Positions 7,960 through 33,299 of a stretch of DNA of 64,000 bases are shown here, piece after piece (position 1 is the stretch's first letter; the number at the start of each line of letters is the position of its first letter). The notes beneath the pieces were generated by a model. That model did not search any database. It saw nothing but the letters and a program-made list of their open reading frames with translations, and was not told the DNA's origin. The position numbers and the translations under genes were made by a program. The DNA is taken from assembly GCA_964473815.1 (NCBI GenBank), contig CAYYQK010000005.1, forward strand, positions 3,847-67,846. Reading direction: 5' to 3'. Source of the DNA: an uncultured Candidatus Saccharibacteria bacterium (GTDB taxonomy: Bacteria > Patescibacteriota > Doudnabacteria > UBA920).

Positions 7960-8916
7960 CTATCCTCGGACACAGCGGACGTAGTAGCTATTACCCATAC
8001 TGTCGTAGTAGGAATCGCCATAGTAGAAATCCGAGAACCACGCGTAGTACGGATAGTCCTCATAGGCAGTAGACGACCAGTAGTAGTCAGACTGGGTGTT
8101 AGGGAAATAAGTAGTGTTAATGCTAGGATTAACCCGTCCATAGTCCACTATGGAATTTAATTCTCTTATATTGGGCAGATGCCAGTCAGTATGGCCAGCC
8201 AGGCTAAGAGCCTGACAATAATCTATCGCCGGAAAATGGCCAGCTCCCTGGTCGCCGTTACCGTCATCAAAGACATACGTGTCTGCACTGCCACCGGAAC
8301 AATCGCTGCCGGTTTGACCAGCAGAGCATTGCTGCCACATCAGGCCTGTGGAATTATCAGTAATAGTGCCGTTACTGTTGTCGGTGTAGGACAAAGCTAC
8401 TCCGGTCTGGGATTCTCCATCTTGACCAGTCCCGCTGCACGGCACCTGGCTAGCCGAGCTGTAGTCATCGCTAAAGGCATTGCAGTGGGTTTGGCCAGTC
8501 AGCAGAGAGGCAGCAGAAGAACCCGAAGTAGCAGTACCGGCAACCCCTAAATATGTTGTGCCTGTTAACACCTTGGTCGGATCAATGGTGGGAATCGCGT
8601 TGTAAATATCAGCTAAAGTGTGGAAGGTGCCAGCCGGACTGCCGCCAGTAGTCAGGCTATGGTCGCCTTCGGTGACTGTGGCGTTGGTCGTCAGACGGTT
8701 GTAAATGTCAGTTAAGGTATAAAAAGTGGCGGCTGGAAGGCTGGAGGGCGAAAGATTGCCGGCATGGGCCACCCCTGCCAAAACTCCTACGGTAATGACT
8801 ACGCTCACACTGCTGTGGAGCACAGTTTTTAGCCAATTTCTTTTAGAGGATGGCTTCATGGCCGAGACCTGGATAATGCTCCTGATCTTTGGACCCTGAT
8901 TTTTTGAGTTATTCAT
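7960..8916 (-). CDS. DGR target protein: secreted or membrane-anchored protein with a C-terminal DUF1566/Lcl-like (C-type-lectin fold) variable domain
   Basis: Signal/TM peptide ('VVITVGVLAGVAHA'; the likely true start is Met at ~8859); 'TGLMWQQ', 'DWHLPNIRELNSI'; C-terminus 'QSDYYWSSTAYEDYPYYAWFSDFYYGDSYYDSMGNSYYVRCVRG' matches TR-encoded '...NYW...NPNNAWLTNFYNGNSNNDNMDNSNYVRCV' with N/T/L codons diversified. Confidence 0.85.
   Translation of the reverse strand: MNNSKNQGPKIRSIIQVSAMKPSSKRNWLKTVLHSSVSVVITVGVLAGVAHAGNLSPSSLPAATFYTLTDIYNRLTTNATVTEGDHSLTTGGSPAGTFHTLADIYNAIPTIDPTKVLTGTTYLGVAGTATSGSSAASLLTGQTHCNAFSDDYSSASQVPCSGTGQDGESQTGVALSYTDNSNGTITDNSTGLMWQQCSAGQTGSDCSGGSADTYVFDDGNGDQGAGHFPAIDYCQALSLAGHTDWHLPNIRELNSIVDYGRVNPSINTTYFPNTQSDYYWSSTAYEDYPYYAWFSDFYYGDSYYDSMGNSYYVRCVRG
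7969..8098 (-). repeat. DGR variable repeat (VR) at the 3' end of the target gene
   Basis: 130 bp; 116/130 identical to TR, with the 14 differences all at TR-adenine positions. Confidence 0.85.
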
Positions 8917-8968
8917 GTGTTTATTTTTTAATTATTTATATTAGCTATTAACGTAACGCTTAACCCTC

Positions 8969-9994
8969 TTAACGGATGACCCGACTGTCATTTGGCACCA
9001 GCACAGGCAAGCCGGGATGATTCTTTAAGACCAAAAGGTCATTGGCATTGGCCGGAACCAGGTACTGAGCCAAACCGCCGTTGCTTAAGAAGATGTCCCA
9101 GCTTGGCACGCCAATCAGTCCCTGGGAGCCGATGTAATAAACTGTCCCTCTGTTTATTACCCAGGAACTCCAGGGGTGGGACTGGGTCGGTGAAGATAGA
9201 AAGTAACTGTCGGCTAAACGGTAACCGGGTAAGTTATCGGAAATAACATTATCTAGTTTATATCCTAATCCGACAAACGCTGGCCAGGAAGTAAAGCCCA
9301 CGGCCACGTACGGTTCAGTAATTAAGTAAATGGTTCCCTGGTAATTAACCAAAGTGCTGGGCGGATAAGAAGGAGGCATAGTCAGCGGTGCTTGCAAGCC
9401 GGGCGGGTTCGCCGGTGGCGGGACATTGGGTTGGCTTGACGGCGGAATGTAACTCCCACCACTGCCTCCACTACCTCCGGTGCCGCCGGAAGCAGGCCGC
9501 CACGTTGTGATAACTTTATAATCCACAGTGCCGCAGGAAGCAGTATCCGCACAGTTAAAAACAATCCAGCCCACGTTTTCGCCGTAAGCCGCGCCGTGGA
9601 ACACACCGCTGCTGTCTATGGTCACGCCAGCTCCAGCAGGGTTAAAGTGAAGCCAGCCCACGTTTTCGCCGTAGGCATAGCCGGCAAGCGTGCCATTAGT
9701 GTTAGACACCTTATAATCCACAGTGCCGCAGGAGGAAGTATTGGCACAATTCAGCGAAAGCCAGCCCACGTTTTCGCCGTAGGCATAGCCTGTCAAGGCT
9801 GAATCGGTTACGGTAACGTTGCCGGCCGAGATGCCGAAGTCCAGCCAACCGATATTTTCACCGTAAGCGTAACGGTTGGCAGGCTCAATAGTGCCTGTAG
9901 AGGCATGGACGCTGGGTGGGGCGAAAAACAATGCGATCGTTAAAGCAGCAATAATCGCAGCGTATACCTGCCGTTTATAGTAGTATAATTTCAT
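8969..9994 (-). CDS. Secreted repeat protein (four ~38-aa 'GYAYGENVGWL...N' repeats, Gly/Pro-rich linker, C-terminal domain), hypothetical
   Basis: N-terminal signal peptide; repeats 'YAYGENIGWLDFG', 'YAYGENVGWLSLNC', 'YAYGENVGWLHFNP', 'AAYGENVGWIVFNC', each followed by 'SCGTVDYKV'-like segments; 'GGTGGSGGSGGS' and poly-Pro linker. Confidence 0.5.
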   Translation of the reverse strand: MKLYYYKRQVYAAIIAALTIALFFAPPSVHASTGTIEPANRYAYGENIGWLDFGISAGNVTVTDSALTGYAYGENVGWLSLNCANTSSCGTVDYKVSNTNGTLAGYAYGENVGWLHFNPAGAGVTIDSSGVFHGAAYGENVGWIVFNCADTASCGTVDYKVITTWRPASGGTGGSGGSGGSYIPPSSQPNVPPPANPPGLQAPLTMPPSYPPSTLVNYQGTIYLITEPYVAVGFTSWPAFVGLGYKLDNVISDNLPGYRLADSYFLSSPTQSHPWSSWVINRGTVYYIGSQGLIGVPSWDIFLSNGGLAQYLVPANANDLLVLKNHPGLPVLVPNDSRVIR

Positions 9995-13500: not shown

Positions 13501-13529
13501 TTGACTATACCATACTTATGTGGTATAAT
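13501..13529 (+). promoter_or_regulatory. Canonical sigma-70 promoter (TTGACT - 17 bp - TGgTATAAT extended -10) for the GC-rich island
   Basis: Exact TTGACT and TATAAT hexamers with a 17-bp spacer and TG at -15/-14, about 40 bp upstream of ATG 13570; an AAGGAG RBS precedes the ATG. Confidence 0.6.
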
Positions 13530-13569
13530 ATAGCAAATAAATTTCAATTTAAAGGAGACCTTATAAACT

Positions 13570-14370
13570 ATGGAAAAAACATCCAATAGCGCTTCATTGA
13601 GTGTATCTGTTCAAAATGAACTCACGATCACCTCCCCCGAGCTCTTAATAGGAGCGAAAGATATGGGTTACCGCCCTGAACTTCTTCTCAAAAGGATTCA
13701 GGAGCATCTCCCCAATCCGGTTGAGGCTCGCCTCTATCTCGCGACAGGAGCCAAACTCCGGCATAGACCGAGCACCTTCAGTACCTTATTGAGAGAGTTG
13801 CTGGGTGGAGATGAAATCCACGAGGCAGACTTACTCGCTCGGTACGAAAACAGCGCGCGCAAGTTCGACAAACTGTTGTCGGATTTAGAGATAGCTTTTA
13901 CCCTAATCCTGCGCGCTCCGATTGACTACAACGGATTGAGAATTGGCGCCCAAACCGCGGCTCGGCTGGTCATTGCATACAGCGATGAAACCGATTCCTT
14001 TTTGGCATCAATAGTCGAAAACATCCCGGATATCGGAGATCTTTTTGGCTACAAACCAATTCCCTCCTACAGGACGAGCAGGTATCGGGACGACAGCTAC
14101 GTGTTTTACCCGGCAGAGAAAATTACCGGGCACGCTTTGGGATTCTGGGGACAAGTGATTTACCCTGAATTCGTAAAAGAAGGCCGACCCTACCCGACCG
14201 AGTTTCTCGATTACTTCGACGACAACGAACAGTATCGCCACGAAGCTTTCGCCTCCATGCAGGATGTCGAAAGATATGTTGACGATGAGGAACTAATTCC
14301 GTCGGAACTGAAAACGGTGGGCGGCTATTTCAAACTCGGTCAACCGAGCAAACCCAACTCTGGAGGATAA
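13570..14370 (+). CDS. Hypothetical protein, island gene 1
   Basis: 266 aa, no recognisable motif; GC-elevated; strong RBS; 2-bp gap to the next gene. Confidence 0.5.
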   Translation: MEKTSNSASLSVSVQNELTITSPELLIGAKDMGYRPELLLKRIQEHLPNPVEARLYLATGAKLRHRPSTFSTLLRELLGGDEIHEADLLARYENSARKFDKLLSDLEIAFTLILRAPIDYNGLRIGAQTAARLVIAYSDETDSFLASIVENIPDIGDLFGYKPIPSYRTSRYRDDSYVFYPAEKITGHALGFWGQVIYPEFVKEGRPYPTEFLDYFDDNEQYRHEAFASMQDVERYVDDEELIPSELKTVGGYFKLGQPSKPNSGG

Positions 14371-14372
14371 CG

Positions 14373-15701
14373 ATGAGCGTTTTTAACACAGAGGATTTGA
14401 TGAAAGCCATGTTAGGTGATCAAAAGAATCCTCTTCGGACCATCGGGTTCAGCAGTGAGCTCCTCCGTTTGGGTTTGAGTGAAGACGAATTGTGGGGATT
14501 TGCAAAAAAGGTCGCTCGCGATCTAACTGCAATCCTTCACCCTGACGCTAATAACTCGGACGAACGGGAAGCAGCTGTTGAAATTACCACAGCATTTCAG
14601 TCCCTAAAAGACAGAAATACTTTCCTGCGATCACTACGGGAATTTAAACACACTTACAACGAGGATCGTTCTAACGAAAACTTGAAAAAGCGTTCGCATG
14701 ATGCACAGCAAACCCGCGTTGACGAGCTGTCGAGGAAACTAAGAAAGGCTAGCGAGGTAAACGAAAACCTCTCAAGGGAAATTGGGAACTTGAGAGGGAA
14801 ACTAATAACCAAAACAGGCTCTGACATAGTTTTGCTTACCAATCCCAAGGATATGTCCCGCAAGCCGTTGCAACAAATTCGTATGCTCCGGCAAGCGCGA
14901 TTGGCGATCGCCATGTTCGTGCACGTTGCTACGTGGCAAGGCGTACCGGAAAGCCCGGAACGGTTAGAGGAGATCTTGAATAAGTATCAACTTGACCGAA
15001 AACGGGCTCTGAAGCAAATTGCTAACTTCAACGAAACGCACAAATCCAAGCGCATACTTGGGGGCGTGAAGGGTGACTTAATGTCTGGACACGTTGAACA
15101 AGCCCACCATGATTTAATGAAAGGTGGATTTGCTTCCAAAGTGTTCCAAGAGATGGTCCAAGAAGCGAACAAGCAACCGATACCAACTCTGAACTGGGAC
15201 TTTAATCGCTGCTTGCAGCAGTACAGCATCGCGAAAGGCGGTACTTACAAACGCCCGGTTCCAGATCCGACAGAAGTGCTGCAGAAAAGTTGCTTTGATT
15301 TTGACACCATCAAGCAGGTGTACAAGTCGCAGTTCGAGCAAGTTACTAATTTTCTCAGTCCTCACCTGGACCGCATTTCTGAAGTTTACATCCATCCTGA
15401 AGTCATAGACCTCACAGGTGGTATGCTGAATGATAATGTGGTAGTCGGGAGCGCGTTTCTGGGTGACAGCAATGTAGACCTCGGGGATAACCGTGCGATA
15501 TTTAACCTCGGTTCATTCCCCCTCGATCTATCTCGCCGTTACCTTTGCGAAGGCGGCCTGGTCGCGGTTGCTAATCCCATAAAGATAGGTATTGTTGGAC
15601 AAACATCTGCTGAGCGTGCAGCGCAGGTATCAGTTAAGCTGGCGAACAAAATCACCAGCTCGAACATGTATAGCTCGCGCATTCTAATAGAGTTTCTCTA
15701 A
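14373..15701 (+). CDS. J-domain (DnaJ-like, HPD motif) protein with coiled-coil and an unknown C-terminal domain, island gene 2
   Basis: N-terminal 'LGLSEDELWGFAKKVARDLTAILHPDANNSDEREAAVEITTAFQSLKD' matches the J-domain helix II-HPD-helix III pattern; central charged coiled-coil; GGAGG RBS. Confidence 0.55.
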   Translation: MSVFNTEDLMKAMLGDQKNPLRTIGFSSELLRLGLSEDELWGFAKKVARDLTAILHPDANNSDEREAAVEITTAFQSLKDRNTFLRSLREFKHTYNEDRSNENLKKRSHDAQQTRVDELSRKLRKASEVNENLSREIGNLRGKLITKTGSDIVLLTNPKDMSRKPLQQIRMLRQARLAIAMFVHVATWQGVPESPERLEEILNKYQLDRKRALKQIANFNETHKSKRILGGVKGDLMSGHVEQAHHDLMKGGFASKVFQEMVQEANKQPIPTLNWDFNRCLQQYSIAKGGTYKRPVPDPTEVLQKSCFDFDTIKQVYKSQFEQVTNFLSPHLDRISEVYIHPEVIDLTGGMLNDNVVVGSAFLGDSNVDLGDNRAIFNLGSFPLDLSRRYLCEGGLVAVANPIKIGIVGQTSAERAAQVSVKLANKITSSNMYSSRILIEFL

Positions 15702-15729
15702 GAGATTCTGATTTATTCCATATTCAAGG

Positions 15730-15757
15730 CCCGTCGTTCAAATGACGGGTCTTTTTT
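15730..15757 (+). terminator. Rho-independent terminator
   Basis: Stem cccgtc/gacggg with an 8-nt loop followed by T6. Confidence 0.6.
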
Positions 15758-15839
15758 ATTTCCCAAATTTTAATTCCTTTACACTGAAAGCATTTAAATA
15801 TAGACTGATTGCAAGTTCCATAAGGAGGAAACTTTCAAA

Positions 15840-17438
15840 ATGAAACCAAAAACATTGGAGGTGGTCTTAGTAAAGCCTTCAAAATACCTGCCCAACGGCT
15901 TCGTCGAGCGGTATAGACGGGGCTTTCTACCAAACATAACGCCATATCATATAGAGAGTTTGACTCCGAAAATGATTGGTGACACCAAAGTCAGAACCCG
16001 GATCGTCGACGAATACACTGCTCCGGATCTCAATTACTTTCGTCTCTTGCAAGCACCGTACGAACGCGATGTTGAACGTTTGGTTGCTTTTGTGGGAACG
16101 CAAAGTCATCAGTTTCCAAGAGCCGCAGATCTTGCTGCTCTCGCAGCCAAAAACGGCGTTAAAGCTGTCATCGGCGGTCCGCATCCAATGACCTGTAACA
16201 CAGAGGCACACCAAGGCAAAGGCGTGAGTTTTGCCCTTGCTGAAGGTGAACTTGTGTGGGGTCAGATTCTAGCCGACGCAATCAATGGCGAACTACAACC
16301 AGTTTACGGTAAGGATCAACGGTGGCAACACGAGCTTGAATCGACCGTAGTGAAACCGCCTCCGCCACATGTTTTGGATCGTTCTTTGGTTCGCATGCAC
16401 GGCGCATATCCAGCCCGAGGCTGCCCTTTCAAATGCACTTACTGCTCAGTGACCCAAATCTCTGGGCATGTTGTCAGGAAGCAAAGCGTCGAAGCGACAA
16501 TGGCCAGTTTGCATCTCGCGAAGAAGGCCAAAATCCAACTGATCGTTTTTGGTTCTGATAACTTCAACAAATTCGAAGATGCTGTTGAGTTACTGCATGC
16601 GATGATCGAGGAAAAAATTAACATCCCGTTCTTTGTCCAATGCGATACCCAAATCGCGGATGATGAAGAATTGGTCGAGTTGCTTGGCCGAGCGGGATGC
16701 GAATTTATCTTCGTGGGCGTGGAAAGTTTTGATGTTGCGACCCTTCAGGCCGCGAAAAAAACGCAAAACAAACCAGAAAAGTACGCGAAGATTATTGAGT
16801 ACTGCCGGAAATACGGCATCGCCTCAACCTTCTCGAACATCATCGGGTTTCCCAATGACACCGTAGAAAGTGTCAAAGGCCATATTCGCCTGGTCACAGA
16901 GATGGCTCCGGGAATGGCTTGGTTTTACATCCTCACGCCGATCCCGGGAACCAGGGATTACGAACAATTCCTGCGCGACGGATTGATAACGGAAAAAAAT
17001 CTCGATCGGTTCGACTGCACTGTGCCGGTTTGGAATCATCCGAATCTATCTCACCAACAACTCCTCGACCTTCAGTTTGGTGCGTATCAGGAATTTTACG
17101 GAATTCGAAATTCGTTCAAGCGCGTAATGAACGAGTGGTGGAATAAGCATCTTTCTGGAACGCAAAGCTATCGTCTGCTGGGCTTCAATCAGCTGATGAA
17201 TATGGCTGCCGCTCGTCAAAGACATCCCATGTCTGGCGGGGTTGGTCGACGGAATCTCGACAGGAATGTCGACTTTGCCCACATTCGCAGATCGACTTAC
17301 GGATACGATCTGTTGCCCCTTCCGGACCGATTAGAAGTACCGGAAAAAGATCAGGCCTTCACGCAAATTCACTTGTCAGGATCTTTAAAGAACCTCAAGA
17401 AAAAGCGCGAAGAGCAAAACCTAAAAATTGCGGCCTAA
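15840..17438 (+). CDS. B12-binding-domain radical SAM enzyme (class B rSAM-like), island gene 3
   Basis: 532 aa; N-terminal Rossmann-like region; 'GCPFKCTYCSV' CxxxCxxC radical-SAM cluster motif; perfect AAGGAGG RBS. Confidence 0.7.
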   Translation: MKPKTLEVVLVKPSKYLPNGFVERYRRGFLPNITPYHIESLTPKMIGDTKVRTRIVDEYTAPDLNYFRLLQAPYERDVERLVAFVGTQSHQFPRAADLAALAAKNGVKAVIGGPHPMTCNTEAHQGKGVSFALAEGELVWGQILADAINGELQPVYGKDQRWQHELESTVVKPPPPHVLDRSLVRMHGAYPARGCPFKCTYCSVTQISGHVVRKQSVEATMASLHLAKKAKIQLIVFGSDNFNKFEDAVELLHAMIEEKINIPFFVQCDTQIADDEELVELLGRAGCEFIFVGVESFDVATLQAAKKTQNKPEKYAKIIEYCRKYGIASTFSNIIGFPNDTVESVKGHIRLVTEMAPGMAWFYILTPIPGTRDYEQFLRDGLITEKNLDRFDCTVPVWNHPNLSHQQLLDLQFGAYQEFYGIRNSFKRVMNEWWNKHLSGTQSYRLLGFNQLMNMAAARQRHPMSGGVGRRNLDRNVDFAHIRRSTYGYDLLPLPDRLEVPEKDQAFTQIHLSGSLKNLKKKREEQNLKIAA

Positions 17439-17460
17439 GAATCCGCATTGTTATAACCAT

Positions 17461-17489
17461 GAGCCGCTCCACGAGTCGGCTCCTTTTTT
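17461..17489 (+). terminator. Rho-independent terminator
   Basis: gagccg...cggctc hairpin followed by a T-run. Confidence 0.6.
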
Positions 17490-17502
17490 ATACATAGTTA
17501 AA

Positions 17503-17539
17503 GCCCGCCGCTACTTCAAGCGACGGGCCTTATTTTTTT
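17503..17539 (+). terminator. Second tandem rho-independent terminator
   Basis: gcccgccgct / agcgacgggc stem (1 mismatch) followed by tattttttt. Confidence 0.5.
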
Positions 17540-17570: not shown

Positions 17571-18299
17571 TTAAGAGCGATCAATCTTATCTAACCATTT
17601 GGAAGCTTTGTCGCGGCCACCAAGGCCGAATGCCAAGCCACCAGCTAAGGCAACCATTGCTACGAAACCTGTGAATAGAATTTGAATCAAGCTGGAAGCA
17701 ATTCCCAATTGAACCAATGCAGCCATCAGGGCGAAGATGACTACTGCCCATTTAGAAATTGTGCTTAAAGCATCAACTGCGGCCTTAGACATCCCAGAAG
17801 CAGTAGCTGTTCCATTAACAACGTTATATACAAAGTTGCCAGCAATTACGCCAAGCGCCAAAATAATAATGGCAACAACAACATTTGGAATGTAAAGCAA
17901 AACCTGGTTCAAGAACGAGGTAACCTGCTCAATATTCAAAATATTTACTACAGCGAGTAAAGTAGCAATGATGAAAAACCATTTCACTACCCAGGCAATC
18001 AGTGCTGTAATACTGATATCTGTGCCCAACTGACGATTGATGCCGGTCTTGTCGACCAAATCATCAATTTTGCCCATATCAAGAACCTTTTTCACCAGCT
18101 TGCCCAAGAAAGAAGCAATGAGCACACCGATGATCAGAACGATAACAGCCGCAATAAATGTCGGCAAACCGTTCAAAAACTGTGACCAAACATTATGCAA
18201 TGATTGTGAAATTGCATCCCCCCAGTTTTGGAAATTTCCATTGGAATCCATGTTTTTATGGTTAATTCTCTTTGCCCCAATATTAACATAAATTTTCAT
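17571..18299 (-). CDS. Polytopic membrane protein with conserved TM-helix repeats (MscS-associated type), hypothetical
   Basis: 242 aa, four or more TM helices, repeated 'G.L..KVL' motifs. Confidence 0.35.
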   Translation of the reverse strand: MKIYVNIGAKRINHKNMDSNGNFQNWGDAISQSLHNVWSQFLNGLPTFIAAVIVLIIGVLIASFLGKLVKKVLDMGKIDDLVDKTGINRQLGTDISITALIAWVVKWFFIIATLLAVVNILNIEQVTSFLNQVLLYIPNVVVAIIILALGVIAGNFVYNVVNGTATASGMSKAAVDALSTISKWAVVIFALMAALVQLGIASSLIQILFTGFVAMVALAGGLAFGLGGRDKASKWLDKIDRS

Positions 18300-19004: not shown

Positions 19005-20405
19005 TCAATTTAACAACAAAGAGATGATAGCAGCGCCACCTGAAATCACCATGAGCCAAACCACTACCCATCCGATTGCCGTGGTGAAACGTCGATTGGT
19101 CCACCTACCCATCAGTTCTTTATTGCTACTGATGCGCACAACAAAAAATAAAATTACCGGAGCAATTACTCCGTTTAAAACGGCAGAATAAATTAAAGCT
19201 TTAATGGGATTAATGCCTGTGAAATTCATAAGCAAGCCCAAAACCATTGCGATAATAATTACTCCGTAAAAACTATGGGCGCTTTTTAATTTGCGGTACA
19301 AGCCTTCTTTCCAGCCAAATGTTTCAGCCATAGCATAAGCTGCACTACCAGCTAAAACTGGAGCTGCTAACATACCTGTACCAATGATTCCCAGCGCAAA
19401 GAGTATATAAGCCTGCTGACCTGCGATTGGCCTGAGGGCGATCGCTGCCTCTTCGGCCGAAGTAACCATAATTCCCGCTGGAAACAATGTGGCCGCACAG
19501 GTTACTACAATGAAAAACATTACTGAGTTGGACAAAAACATACCAAACCAAACATCAGTGCGCATCTTTTTAACTTGATTCTTAGTCAGATCGTTATGGC
19601 GCAATCGCGCATGGCCTTTATGTCCTAAAGAGGCTAAGTGGCGGTCTTCGACTTCCTGCGATGTTTGCCAAAAAAATAAATATGGCGAGATGGTGGTTCC
19701 TAAAATAGCACAAATTAGCAGCAATGAATCTTTGGAAAGAACAAAACTTGGTACCAGAGTTTGCTTCAAAATGACTTGCCAGTCTAAATTTGGTATTACA
19801 AAAGCTGTCGCTACATATAACAACAAGATGAACGACAAATATTTTAAATATTTAGCATATCGTGAGTAGCTAACAAAAATTTGCAGCCCCAAACTTATGA
19901 TCGTAAAGAATAAAATCGCCACTATAAAAGGTAAGCCATGAAAAATCAACTGTGAGGCCTTAGACATTGCTCCCAAATCTGCGCCTAAGTTGAAGGCATT
20001 GGCAATAAATAATAGTCCGGATACAAAGTACAAAACCTTCGCAGAGTACTGCCCACGAATATTTTTTGCTAGCCCTCGGCCTGTAGCCATACCAATACGA
20101 GCGCACATTTCCTGCACCGTAGCCATAAGGGGGAAAGTAAACAATGCTAACCAGGTTAACTGAAAACCAAATTGCGCTCCAGTTTGTGAGTATGTAGCAA
20201 TTCCTGATGGATCATCATCCGAAGCACCAGTGGTTAAACCAGGCCCTAAAGATTCCCAATAATTTTCCGCTTCCTGTAACAGGGGCTTTTTGCTAAATAC
20301 ATGCGTACTTAAAACTTTTGCATCTTTAATCGCCTCATCCAATGCTTTTGCAGGAGTTTCGGCGACTTCGGTAACTACTTCATCAATCTTTTTTGTATTC
20401 ATTTT
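19005..20405 (-). CDS. mntH: NRAMP-family divalent metal (Mn/Fe) transporter
   Basis: 'GPGLTTGASDDDPSGIATYSQTGAQFGF' matches the Nramp signature region; 11-12 TM helices. ORF track extends to 20576, but the start is probably 'MNTKK' at ~20405; the extension overlaps the infC leader. Confidence 0.7.
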   Translation of the reverse strand, partial: KMNTKKIDEVVTEVAETPAKALDEAIKDAKVLSTHVFSKKPLLQEAENYWESLGPGLTTGASDDDPSGIATYSQTGAQFGFQLTWLALFTFPLMATVQEMCARIGMATGRGLAKNIRGQYSAKVLYFVSGLLFIANAFNLGADLGAMSKASQLIFHGLPFIVAILFFTIISLGLQIFVSYSRYAKYLKYLSFILLLYVATAFVIPNLDWQVILKQTLVPSFVLSKDSLLLICAILGTTISPYLFFWQTSQEVEDRHLASLGHKGHARLRHNDLTKNQVKKMRTDVWFGMFLSNSVMFFIVVTCAATLFPAGIMVTSAEEAAIALRPIAGQQAYILFALGIIGTGMLAAPVLAGSAAYAMAETFGWKEGLYRKLKSAHSFYGVIIIAMVLGLLMNFTGINPIKALIYSAVLNGVIAPVILFFVVRISSNKELMGRWTNRRFTTAIGWVVVWLMVISGGAAIISLLLN

Positions 20406-20504
20406 GTTTTTGATATTGATTTCAATCAGACATTTACCTCTATATATTATGGCAACTGAGCACTTTTGACAAATTTGCCCATAAAAGCTATAATTAGGCC
20501 ACGA

Positions 20505-21014
20505 ATGCAAACAACTCGCGTTAATCACCAAATCACCGCACCCGAGCTCCGCCTCCTCAATGATGAAGGCGAGCAATTGGGTGTGATGTCGTTATCAGAG
20601 GCTTTAAAATTAGCTGAAGAACACGGCCTTGATTTAGTGGAAATTTCGCCTCAAGCCCGACCGCCGGTGGTCAAACTAATCAGTTATGATAAGTTTAAAT
20701 ACCAGCAGAAGAAGCTTGAGCAGCAGCAAAAAAAGAAAGTCAAAAAAGTGGAAGTGAAAACGGTCCGCCTTTCGGCTAAAATCGCGACGCATGATATTCT
20801 AACCAAAGCCCGTAAAGCCGACGAATTTCTCACCGACGGTGATTGGGTGAAGTTGGAACTTCGCATGCGCGGTCGCGAACAAGCTTTTCTTGACGTAGCG
20901 CAGCAACAGATTGAAGCATTCCGGCAAGCTTTAACCGTCCCCTATCGAGTTGAAGTCGAAGCCAAAAAGATGGGCAATACGTTAAGTATGATCATCGCTC
21001 CATCAACTAAGTAA
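20505..21014 (+). CDS. infC: Translation initiation factor IF-3
   Basis: '[34 protein letters not shown]' aligns with the E. coli IF3 N-domain; an in-frame AUU at 20493 is the alternative, canonical IF3 start. Confidence 0.85.
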
Positions 21015-33001: not shown

Positions 33002-33299
33002 TCGGGAGTAGCTCAGTGGTAGAGCAATCGGCTGTGTCACAAACCATACGCAGCCCTGAATGGTAACATTTAGGTGATAACGAGGTGAATTGCTGGAAGC
33101 CTGTTTGCCGAAAGGCAATGGTAATCAGCAGCCAAGCTACTTAGTAGAAGGTTCAGAGACTATCCGCAAGGAGTACTGCGACTAGTTCGCGGGAAGCGCC
33201 TCGCATCCTAAGGGATGATGATATAGTCCACCCCTTTTCGAAAGATTAGGATAATGTGTAACCGATCGGTCCTGGGTTCGAATCCCAGCTCCCGAGCCA
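33002..33299 (+). tRNA. tRNA gene (Asn-GUU favoured by G73 discriminator, or Thr-UGU) interrupted by a group I intron in the anticodon loop
   Basis: 5' exon TCGGGAG-TA-GCTC-AGTGGTA-GAGC-A-ATCGG-CU; 3' exon ...AA-CCGAU-CGGUC-CUGGG-UUCGAAU-CCCAG-CUCCCGA-G-CCA. Acceptor, D, anticodon and T stems all pair. Confidence 0.8.
33034..33258 (+). ncRNA. Group I self-splicing intron (~223 nt) within the tRNA anticodon loop
   Basis: Contains group I core elements: P 'AATTGCTGGAA', Q 'AATCAGCAG', R 'GGTTCAGAGACTA', S 'GATATAGTCC'. The 5' exon ends in U and the intron ends in G; boundaries are uncertain by ~2 nt. Confidence 0.75.

Follow-up and report, generated by a model that had tools for sequence, protein, structure and literature searches.

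The locus analysed here raises the question of whether three adjacent genes, encoding a protein of no recognizable family, a J-domain-like protein and a radical S-adenosylmethionine (rSAM) enzyme, form one functional system or have merely come to lie side by side. The genes, here termed g1, g2 and g3, occupy a block at positions 13501-17539 of a 64,000 nt stretch of contig CAYYQK010000005.1 from an uncultured Candidatus Saccharibacteria bacterium; this stretch is referred to below as the window, and the coordinates of its main features are collected in Table 1. A preliminary description of the same DNA had suggested that the block is a single acquired segment of raised guanine–cytosine (GC) content, in which a J-domain protein and an rSAM enzyme would work as part of a functional trio. 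Our study instead favours, with moderate confidence, two independent units: a promoter–g1–g2–terminator accessory cassette of candidate phyla radiation (CPR) bacteria that encodes a putative class C J-domain protein (JDP), and an unrelated, separately transcribed g3.

The separation of the two units was seen across 36 homolog-bearing loci examined for g1, g2 and g3, which were found by tblastn and hidden Markov model searches and were drawn from the contigs of family relatives and from reference-genome and metagenome matches. No g3 homolog was found in any other locus that carries a g1-g2 pair, even where ~7-10 kb of sequence beyond the pair was available, and none of the loci of g3 relatives had a homolog of g1 or g2. 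The trio is rejected because its three genes were not found together in any other locus, an outcome that the preliminary description had itself named in advance as speaking against it. In locus L023, the closest rSAM relative (67 % identical) lies upstream of mechanosensitive (MS) channel and Nramp genes, as it does in the window, and it occupies this partly syntenic position without the pair; its GC content is nevertheless raised (0.516 vs 0.409). Since the rSAM gene is GC-elevated in the absence of the pair, the GC-rich block is not one acquired segment but two independent units, each GC-elevated, that adjoin one another. g3 is independent of the g1-g2 module and is merely adjacent to it in the window genome.

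Conservation of the g1-g2 pair

In each of 11 distinct lineages (the window and loci L001, L003, L004, L008, L014, L016, L022, L030, L033 and L035), a g2 homolog was immediately preceded by a g1 homolog, and g1 is the obligate upstream partner of g2. The two genes are usually translationally coupled and were a few nucleotides apart or overlapping in most of these pair loci, with a gap of 120 nt in L003; the pairing persisted even for g1 homologs that share no more than 27-31 % identity with the window protein. At 50 % clustering, the g1 family comprised 62 representatives in a library of 1.84 billion, and a search of 5.8 billion protein clusters gave 4 relatives of g2. No additional conserved neighbour was detected when all open reading frames (ORFs) ≤6 kb from the pairs were compared with each other by all-against-all BLAST. 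A 562-aa ORF abutting g2 in L014 was considered as a member of the cassette and rejected, as a terminator hairpin precedes it and it had no Pfam match.

The expression signals were also conserved. In 6 of the 11 loci an extended -10 element (TGnTATAAT, ≤1 mismatch) preceded the g1 homolog by 49-75 nt, and TTGACA-type promoter sites were found upstream of the g1 homolog in L033 and L016. Overall, 8 of the 11 had a near-consensus or extended -10 promoter at a distance of 50-100 nt before the g1 homolog. The sequence TGGTATAAT was common to the promoter regions of L001, L008, L030 and the window, and the g2 homolog was followed by a hairpin with a T-rich tail in 9 of the 11 loci. Loci L001 and L008, whose g2 proteins are 59 % identical, were homologous at the DNA level from ~80 nt upstream of g1 to the 3′ end of g2, and their flanks were unrelated. 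These limits of homology, taken together with the conserved signals, indicate that the conserved entity consists of the promoter, g1, g2 and the terminator.

Distribution and probable mobility of the pair

Relatives of the pair were found in metagenome-assembled genomes labelled Candidatus Saccharibacteria, and the genes around them seem typical of small CPR genomes. The cassette is independent of its surroundings in both composition and position. Its GC content was 0.42-0.55 in hosts of 0.30-0.47 and was above that of the flanks in all nine such loci and in the window, with a value of 0.498 vs 0.298 in L004; L014 was the exception, where the pair (GC 0.62) fell below its flanks (locus GC 0.68). 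The neighbourhoods of the pair were unrelated between loci.

In L004 (8723-11671) the pair was observed within a GC-rich island of ~2.8 kb (0.40-0.53), at ~8.9-11.7 kb of a contig of ~0.30 GC, and the same region occurred in L005, L015 and L017. The island is bounded by an N-terminal fragment of an integrase (phrog_1, E 5e-6) and a fragment of a rolling-circle Rep protein (phrog_3419, E 1.5e-5; 103 aa, with the motif SYLVKYMAK), contains the g1-g2-like pair and a 67-aa ORF in addition to these fragments, and looks like a decayed integrated element. The contig carrying the L004 pair also encodes DnaK and DnaJ; DnaK is not present within the 64-kb window.

Four further loci (L018, L019, L020 and L021) were observed to encode a short g2-like J-protein of 324-327 aa on contigs of higher GC (~0.52-0.57), some of which came from peat or bog metagenomes, and no g1 partner of these short genes was detectable in the four loci. 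In L020 (7568-10936) and L021, a tyrosine integrase gene and tRNA-Ser(GCU) are found directly upstream of the short gene. These observations suggest that the J-like family also moves on integrative elements outside the CPR bacteria.

Several results weigh against mobility of the pair. The g2 family had no match among the viral contigs of IMG/VR, and both g1 and g2 were unmatched in GenBank phages and in the plasmids of PLSDB. No convincing flanking att-like repeats were found around the block in the window, and its surroundings are of a housekeeping nature (tryptophanyl-tRNA synthetase, Nramp and an MS channel) rather than a defence island. At 59 % protein identity, synteny could also have been lost through ordinary genome rearrangement. 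The evidence for mobility is circumstantial, and horizontal spread of the g1-g2 cassette is considered likely but not proven.

The same observations bear upon an alternative of low probability, in which the pair is a conflict module of mobile elements, serving in anti-phage defence or abortive infection, in addiction or in a host takeover like that of the phage protein Rki, that hijacks or gates DnaK instead of serving as a housekeeping chaperone. The rare and patchy occurrence of the pair (62 clusters among the 1.84 billion representatives), its fast evolution, its own strong promoter and terminator, its unrelated neighbourhoods and its foreign GC content are consistent with such a module, as are the integrase and Rep remnants that flank it in L004/L005 and the solo short g2-like genes beside the integrase and tRNA-Ser in L020/L021. 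There is also precedent in a phage-encoded J-protein that acts on DnaK (PMC3486835) and in DnaJ, which mediates phage sensing by bNACHT25 (PMC12169576). However, neither g1 nor g2 matched a defence system in PADLOC-DB v2 or a family in PHROGs, the viral, phage and plasmid searches were empty, no effector-type domain (nuclease, pore, NADase or protease) was found in either protein, and the housekeeping neighbourhood in the window speaks against a conflict role. An equally tentative proposal is that of a mobile 'chaperone-hijacking' module of CPR bacteria, in which the divergent J-protein would commandeer DnaK, together with g1, on behalf of the carrier element, for its replication or establishment, for addiction or for the exclusion of competing elements or phages. 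If this were true, the cassette would represent a conflict or maintenance system of an undescribed kind.

The J-domain-like protein g2

The favoured reading, that of an accessory cassette encoding a class C JDP, depends upon the identity of g2, a basic protein (pI 9.0) in which an N-terminal J-like module is followed by a long basic helix (~residues 81-148) and then by a C-terminal region of uncharacterised nature. Conservation is highest in the first 85 residues. Among the 11 members of the family, N19, L21, G25, L40, H56, D58, A74, L78, D80 and F84 are invariant, so that the histidine and aspartate of the HPD motif are present in every member, and P57 is retained in 10 of the 11; members are otherwise 17-45 % identical to the window protein. 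When aligned by hhalign with a reference profile of 8 canonical J-domains, the family gave a probability of 92.9 % and a P value of 3.7e-7 over 39 columns, which cover helix II, the HPD motif and helix III. In this alignment the basic helix II residues K45, K46 and R49 correspond to R22, K23 and K26 of DnaJ, and a conserved helix III motif, AF..L.D, corresponds to AYEVLTD. Searching the PDB with the g2 family profile gave J-domain chains in 17 of the 19 listed matches, with a best E value of 0.006.

Within the JDPs, the classes were taken as defined in PMC8215388 and PMC10410713. Neither DnaJ_C nor the zinc-finger domain DnaJ_CXXCXGXG matched g2, whereas the canonical DnaJ of L004 shows both. 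Because it has no class A or class B domains, g2 is best read, from its sequence, as a very divergent class C JDP, and catalogues of J-domains that rely on Pfam or InterPro calls would probably miss it.

There are, nevertheless, several points against a J-domain assignment. The Pfam DnaJ profile (PF00226) scored 15.5 bits against g2 (E 0.02), below the gathering cut-off of 27.8 bits, and 6 of the 11 members matched at E ≤1; the J-domain of the preliminary description therefore stands as a J-like module with a conserved HPD motif, but not as a domain that passes the Pfam threshold. Apart from this weak match, Pfam, NCBIfam, PADLOC and PHROGs assigned no family to g2 or to the other members of its family. 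The match is limited to helix II, HPD and helix III, it is preceded by an insertion of ~9 residues relative to canonical J-domains, the core tyrosine (Y25 of DnaJ) is alanine in the g2 family and the window protein has a J region that is acidic overall (pI 4.8). One member, in L035 (1751-3022), has HED in place of HPD in a J-like domain that is otherwise conserved, which could reflect either natural variation in the motif or degeneration of this copy. In the AlphaFold2 (AF2) model of g2, which was built on 5 sequences, HPD is flanked by two helices (residues 37-55 and 62-77), as expected of a J-domain, and a third helix of ~68 residues comes after them; with a pLDDT of 39 the model was unusable for fold searches and does not show a four-helix fold.

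Taken together, the sub-threshold scores, the replaced tyrosine, the insertion before helix II, the single HED and the acidic J region would fit an alternative that we regard as unlikely, in which the HPD region would be either the relic of a J-domain or a helical hairpin that arose by convergence, in both cases without engaging Hsp70, and the two proteins would form a heterodimer of structural or regulatory function with no link to chaperones. This is opposed by the retention of the histidine and aspartate, and almost always the proline, in proteins that otherwise differ so widely, by the conserved helix III motif, and by the nature of the PDB matches and the hhalign P value. Furthermore, no part of the protein is better conserved than the HPD region, a pattern that suggests that this surface is under selection.

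The partner protein g1 and a proposed mode of action

The protein encoded by g1 is acidic (pI 5.0), soluble and mostly alpha-helical, and its homologs range from 200 to 266 aa. Its AF2 model (pLDDT 83, pTM 0.80) comprises two helical domains and a small hairpin, and Foldseek searches of this fold against the PDB and BFVD gave nothing better than E 0.6. A profile of the g1 family yielded only marginal helical-repeat noise in the PDB, the best match being IFT172 (E 0.005). The preliminary description had found no recognizable motif in g1, and no family was assigned to it by Pfam, NCBIfam, PADLOC and PHROGs, all of which were empty for the single protein and for the members of its family. A J-like nature of g1 itself was ruled out by hhalign (probability 0.4 %), and the C-terminal region of g2 was likewise unrelated to g1 (probability 0.1 %). 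Among the 62 g1 sequences, only E52, P67 and G138 are near-invariant, a pattern of conservation that would fit a binding or scaffold protein better than an enzyme. The two partners carry opposite charge (pI 5.0 for g1 vs 9.0 for g2), and no signal peptide or transmembrane (TM) segment was found in either of them (maximum 19-aa hydropathy 1.0-1.35).

From these properties we infer that g1 and g2 may form a complex, and that the cassette may serve as a mobile accessory module recruiting DnaK to g1 or to a target bound by g1. The J-domain of g2 would dock on the DnaK (Hsp70) of the cell, and its HPD loop would trigger ATP hydrolysis by DnaK, while the basic coiled coil and the C-terminal region would supply specificity. 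DnaK would then clamp g1, or a target bound jointly by g1 and the C-terminal region of g2. The role of g1 could be that of a client remodelled by DnaK, of an adaptor that brings in clients or of a regulator of the J-domain like CbpM; in the last case, g1 would gate the J-domain of g2 as CbpM gates CbpA. Candidate purposes of such a downstream activity are a specialised chaperone task, the maintenance of a mobile element and defence.

Saccharibacteria have an epibiotic lifestyle, and g2 might accordingly be pictured as an effector that is delivered into an actinobacterial host to subvert the DnaK of that host, with g1 as its chaperone or immunity protein. The lineage-restricted distribution of the pair would suit this picture, and an acidic upstream partner followed by a basic J-protein resembles known arrangements of effector and chaperone. 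We consider it very unlikely, given that g1 and g2 have neither signal peptide nor TM segment, that no secretion-system gene is consistently found near the pair and that the short g2-like homologs of L018-L021 occur on contigs of higher GC content that seem unlike Saccharibacteria genomes.

The stand-alone radical SAM enzyme g3

g3 matched the Radical_SAM profile (PF04055) with 79.9 bits (cut-off 29.5, E 3e-22). The cysteines of its CxxxCxxC motif (Cys195/199/202), a motif that the preliminary description had noted along with the HPD motif of g2, are invariant in 25 homologs, as are further cysteines at positions 119, 268 and 287, and the alignment of these 25 sequences has a mean column identity of 61 %. 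The family numbers 1,688 homologs in several phyla, with identities of ~50 % in Acidobacteriota and Planctomycetota. The rSAM assignment was thereby upheld, whereas the B12-binding domain assigned to the N-terminus scored below threshold (PF02310, 17.8 bits vs a cut-off of 32.1). TIGR04013 aligned over residues 78-372 with 63 bits vs a cut-off of 251, and none of the solved B12 domains aligned with g3 by sequence. g3 is, as far as its sequence indicates, a member of a widespread uncharacterised family with a class-B-like architecture, and cobalamin binding is not established.

The best solved relative was AprD4 (6fd2), with a profile E value of 5e-18 for the core only (~residues 188-401). All named NCBIfam rSAM families fell far below their cut-offs (the best were HpnJ, 97.8 bits vs 577.6, and PhpK, 95.2 vs 600), and an identity of g3 as HpnJ, PhpK, BchE, AprD4, HpnR or a C-methyltransferase of ribosomally synthesized and post-translationally modified peptides (RiPPs) was rejected on these cut-offs. 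g3 resembles the AprD4, HpnJ, PhpK, BchE and TsrM-type enzymes in its CxxxCxxC core, an N-terminal Rossmann-like region and a weak B12-binding signal; it differs from them in scoring below every named cut-off, in aligning with solved structures over the core alone and in having no conserved neighbours. The one PADLOC match of g3 was weak and linked its rSAM core with the candidate PDC-M51A (E 9e-10).

The relatives of g3 are monocistronic and lie among unrelated housekeeping genes. A role as RiPP maturase, for which the preliminary description had advised a search for precursor peptides, was rejected: neither g3 nor its relatives had a RiPP-like precursor or conserved tailoring or transport neighbours beside them, and the intergenic DNA of the block holds only terminators. 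In L025 (1751-4456 and 8045-9450) a relative that is 64 % identical to g3 was observed between two Y1_Tnp (IS200/REP-type) transposase genes, with an RVT_1 reverse transcriptase and a bAvd gene, resembling a diversity-generating retroelement, ~4 kb downstream of the rSAM gene.

That g1, g2 and the rSAM gene nonetheless make up one cassette, for instance with the J-protein delivering or maturing the iron–sulphur (Fe-S) enzyme like HscB, or as a modification or defence module, is the least credible of the alternatives, as the adjacency, shared strand and raised GC content of the three genes in the window and the part that HscB-type J-proteins play in Fe-S cluster transfer (PMC8215388) are set against the lack of co-occurrence both in the pair loci with several kb of downstream sequence and in the rSAM loci, a strong terminator between g2 and g3, an rSAM family that is >10-fold more abundant than the g1 family and spans several phyla, and the elevated GC content of the rSAM gene alone in L023.

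Comparison with known systems

As a class C JDP, g2 would be comparable to HscB, DjlA and DjlB/DjlC (PMC8215388, PMC10410713). It likewise has an N-terminal J-like module with HPD between two helices, it likewise lacks the glycine/phenylalanine-rich (G/F) region, the zinc finger and the DnaJ C-terminal domains, and the remainder of the protein is unique and presumably gives specificity. It differs from class C proteins in a J-domain that falls below the PF00226 threshold and in always being accompanied by an upstream partner gene, g1. Unlike DjlA/B/C, it has no TM anchor, and unlike the HscB/IscU system, it has neither the C-terminal domain of HscB nor isc/hscA neighbours.

In gamma-proteobacteria, the J-protein CbpA is co-transcribed with CbpM, a specific modulator that binds its J-domain; CbpM is described as small and as evolutionarily related to transcriptional regulators, and it is encoded downstream of cbpA (PMC8215388). 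The g1-g2 pair is similarly a two-gene operon of a J-protein and a dedicated non-chaperone partner. However, g1 is encoded upstream of its J-protein and measures 200-266 aa; it belongs to no Pfam family, Foldseek searches of the PDB and BFVD gave no match to it, and g2 is not a class B JDP. The J-domain protein Rki of a T4-related phage acts on DnaK and stabilises sigma32 (PMC3486835). g2 resembles it as an ORFan-like accessory J-protein outside the core chaperone operon, possibly on a mobile element, but has no match in IMG/VR, GenBank phages or PHROGs, is a much larger protein that includes a coiled coil and a C-terminal region, and is accompanied by an obligate partner. Overall, the pair compares best with a class C JDP that has a dedicated partner. 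By analogy, CbpA-CbpM and HscB-IscU are its nearest counterparts at the level of the operon, and phage Rki the nearest accessory JDP; the pair belongs to none of these specific systems. A literature search found no description of the g1-g2 pair or of a system combining a J-domain with a radical SAM enzyme in Saccharibacteria or Patescibacteria.

If g2 works as a J-protein, it would represent a new lineage-restricted class C family that is invisible to standard profiles and that comes with an obligate partner, in small CPR genomes that keep few chaperone components. A compact cassette with its own expression signals and with signs of horizontal spread is an easy target for synthesis and testing, and could reveal a new use of Hsp70 by mobile DNA or by epibionts. 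The proposed mechanism rests on a divergent domain. Our study also removes a false association between J-domains and radical SAM enzymes, and flags the family of g3 as a large, strongly conserved, multi-phylum rSAM family.

Layout of the block and other features of the window

Table 1. Features of the g1-g2-g3 block (window coordinates)
Feature	Position	Strand	Details
Promoter of g1-g2	13501..13529	+	TTGACT, 17 nt, TG-n-TATAAT; extended -10; 11/12 consensus positions
g1	13570..14370	+	ORF, 266 aa
g2	14373..15701	+	ORF, 442 aa
J-domain-like module of g2	~residues 17-85, nt 14421-14627	+	HPD at nt 14538-14546 (residues 56-58)
Terminator closing the g1-g2 unit	15726..15753	+	12-bp stem, -18.1 kcal/mol, z -6.6, then T-run
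Weak promoter-like site for g3	15778..15806	+	TTTACA, 17 nt, TAGACT; 9/12; consensus match alone
g3	15840..17438	+	ORF, 532 aa; CxxxCxxC at nt 16422-16445
Tandem terminator hairpin 1 after g3	17461-17482	+	-13.1 kcal/mol, z -4.3, then T-run
Tandem terminator hairpin 2 after g3	17499-17532	+	-16.2 kcal/mol, z -3.8, then T-run

The physical layout given in the preliminary description was confirmed, with three ORFs on the plus strand, a near-consensus extended -10 promoter, three hairpins and strong ribosome-binding sites all present. g1 and g2 are 2 nt apart, as had been reported, and the GGAGG of g2 sits in the last codons of g1; Shine-Dalgarno sequences precede g1 (AGGAG) and g3 (AGGAGG). Promoter sites matching at least 11 of the 12 consensus positions occur five times in the 64-kb window, that of g1-g2 included, compared to a mean of 1.8 in shuffled sequences. 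The weak promoter-like site for g3 falls between the g2 terminator and the Shine-Dalgarno sequence of g3. A simple terminator scanner listed the hairpin after g2 alone, and both hairpins after g3 were recovered by folding; the second of these may also serve a convergent gene at 17571-18299.

The rise in GC content proved real but smaller than claimed. The values for g1 (0.497), g2 (0.474) and g3 (0.487) compare with 0.425 for the window and with an ORF mean of 0.430 (standard deviation 0.035), corresponding to z scores of 1.3-1.9, and the 38-40 % that had been given for the surroundings was too low. Two genes elsewhere in the window exceed all three. These lie on the minus strand at 7960-9994, are the GC-richest of the window (0.508 and 0.526, z 2.2-2.8) and include one with an Lcl_C domain and a second with no Pfam family; they are possibly a separate acquired segment.

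Two further features of the window were observed on the plus strand. A perfect 12/12 sigma-70 consensus (TTGACA, 17 nt, TATAAT) is located at 20466-20494, where it overlaps the 5′ end of the Nramp ORF on the minus strand (19005-20576) and is directed away from that ORF. At 33003-33298 there is a tRNA gene whose anticodon loop is split by a full-length group I intron (~33034-33256; Rfam RF00028, 76.7 bits, E ~1e-17 to 3e-19), and which was undetected by ARAGORN when unspliced. A TGTGT repeat is present at both intron junctions, so that His(GUG) and Leu(UAA) are possible as well, and the commonest solution of in silico splicing was tRNA-Thr(UGU). Among bacterial tRNA genes, one for Thr would be an uncommon site for a group I intron.

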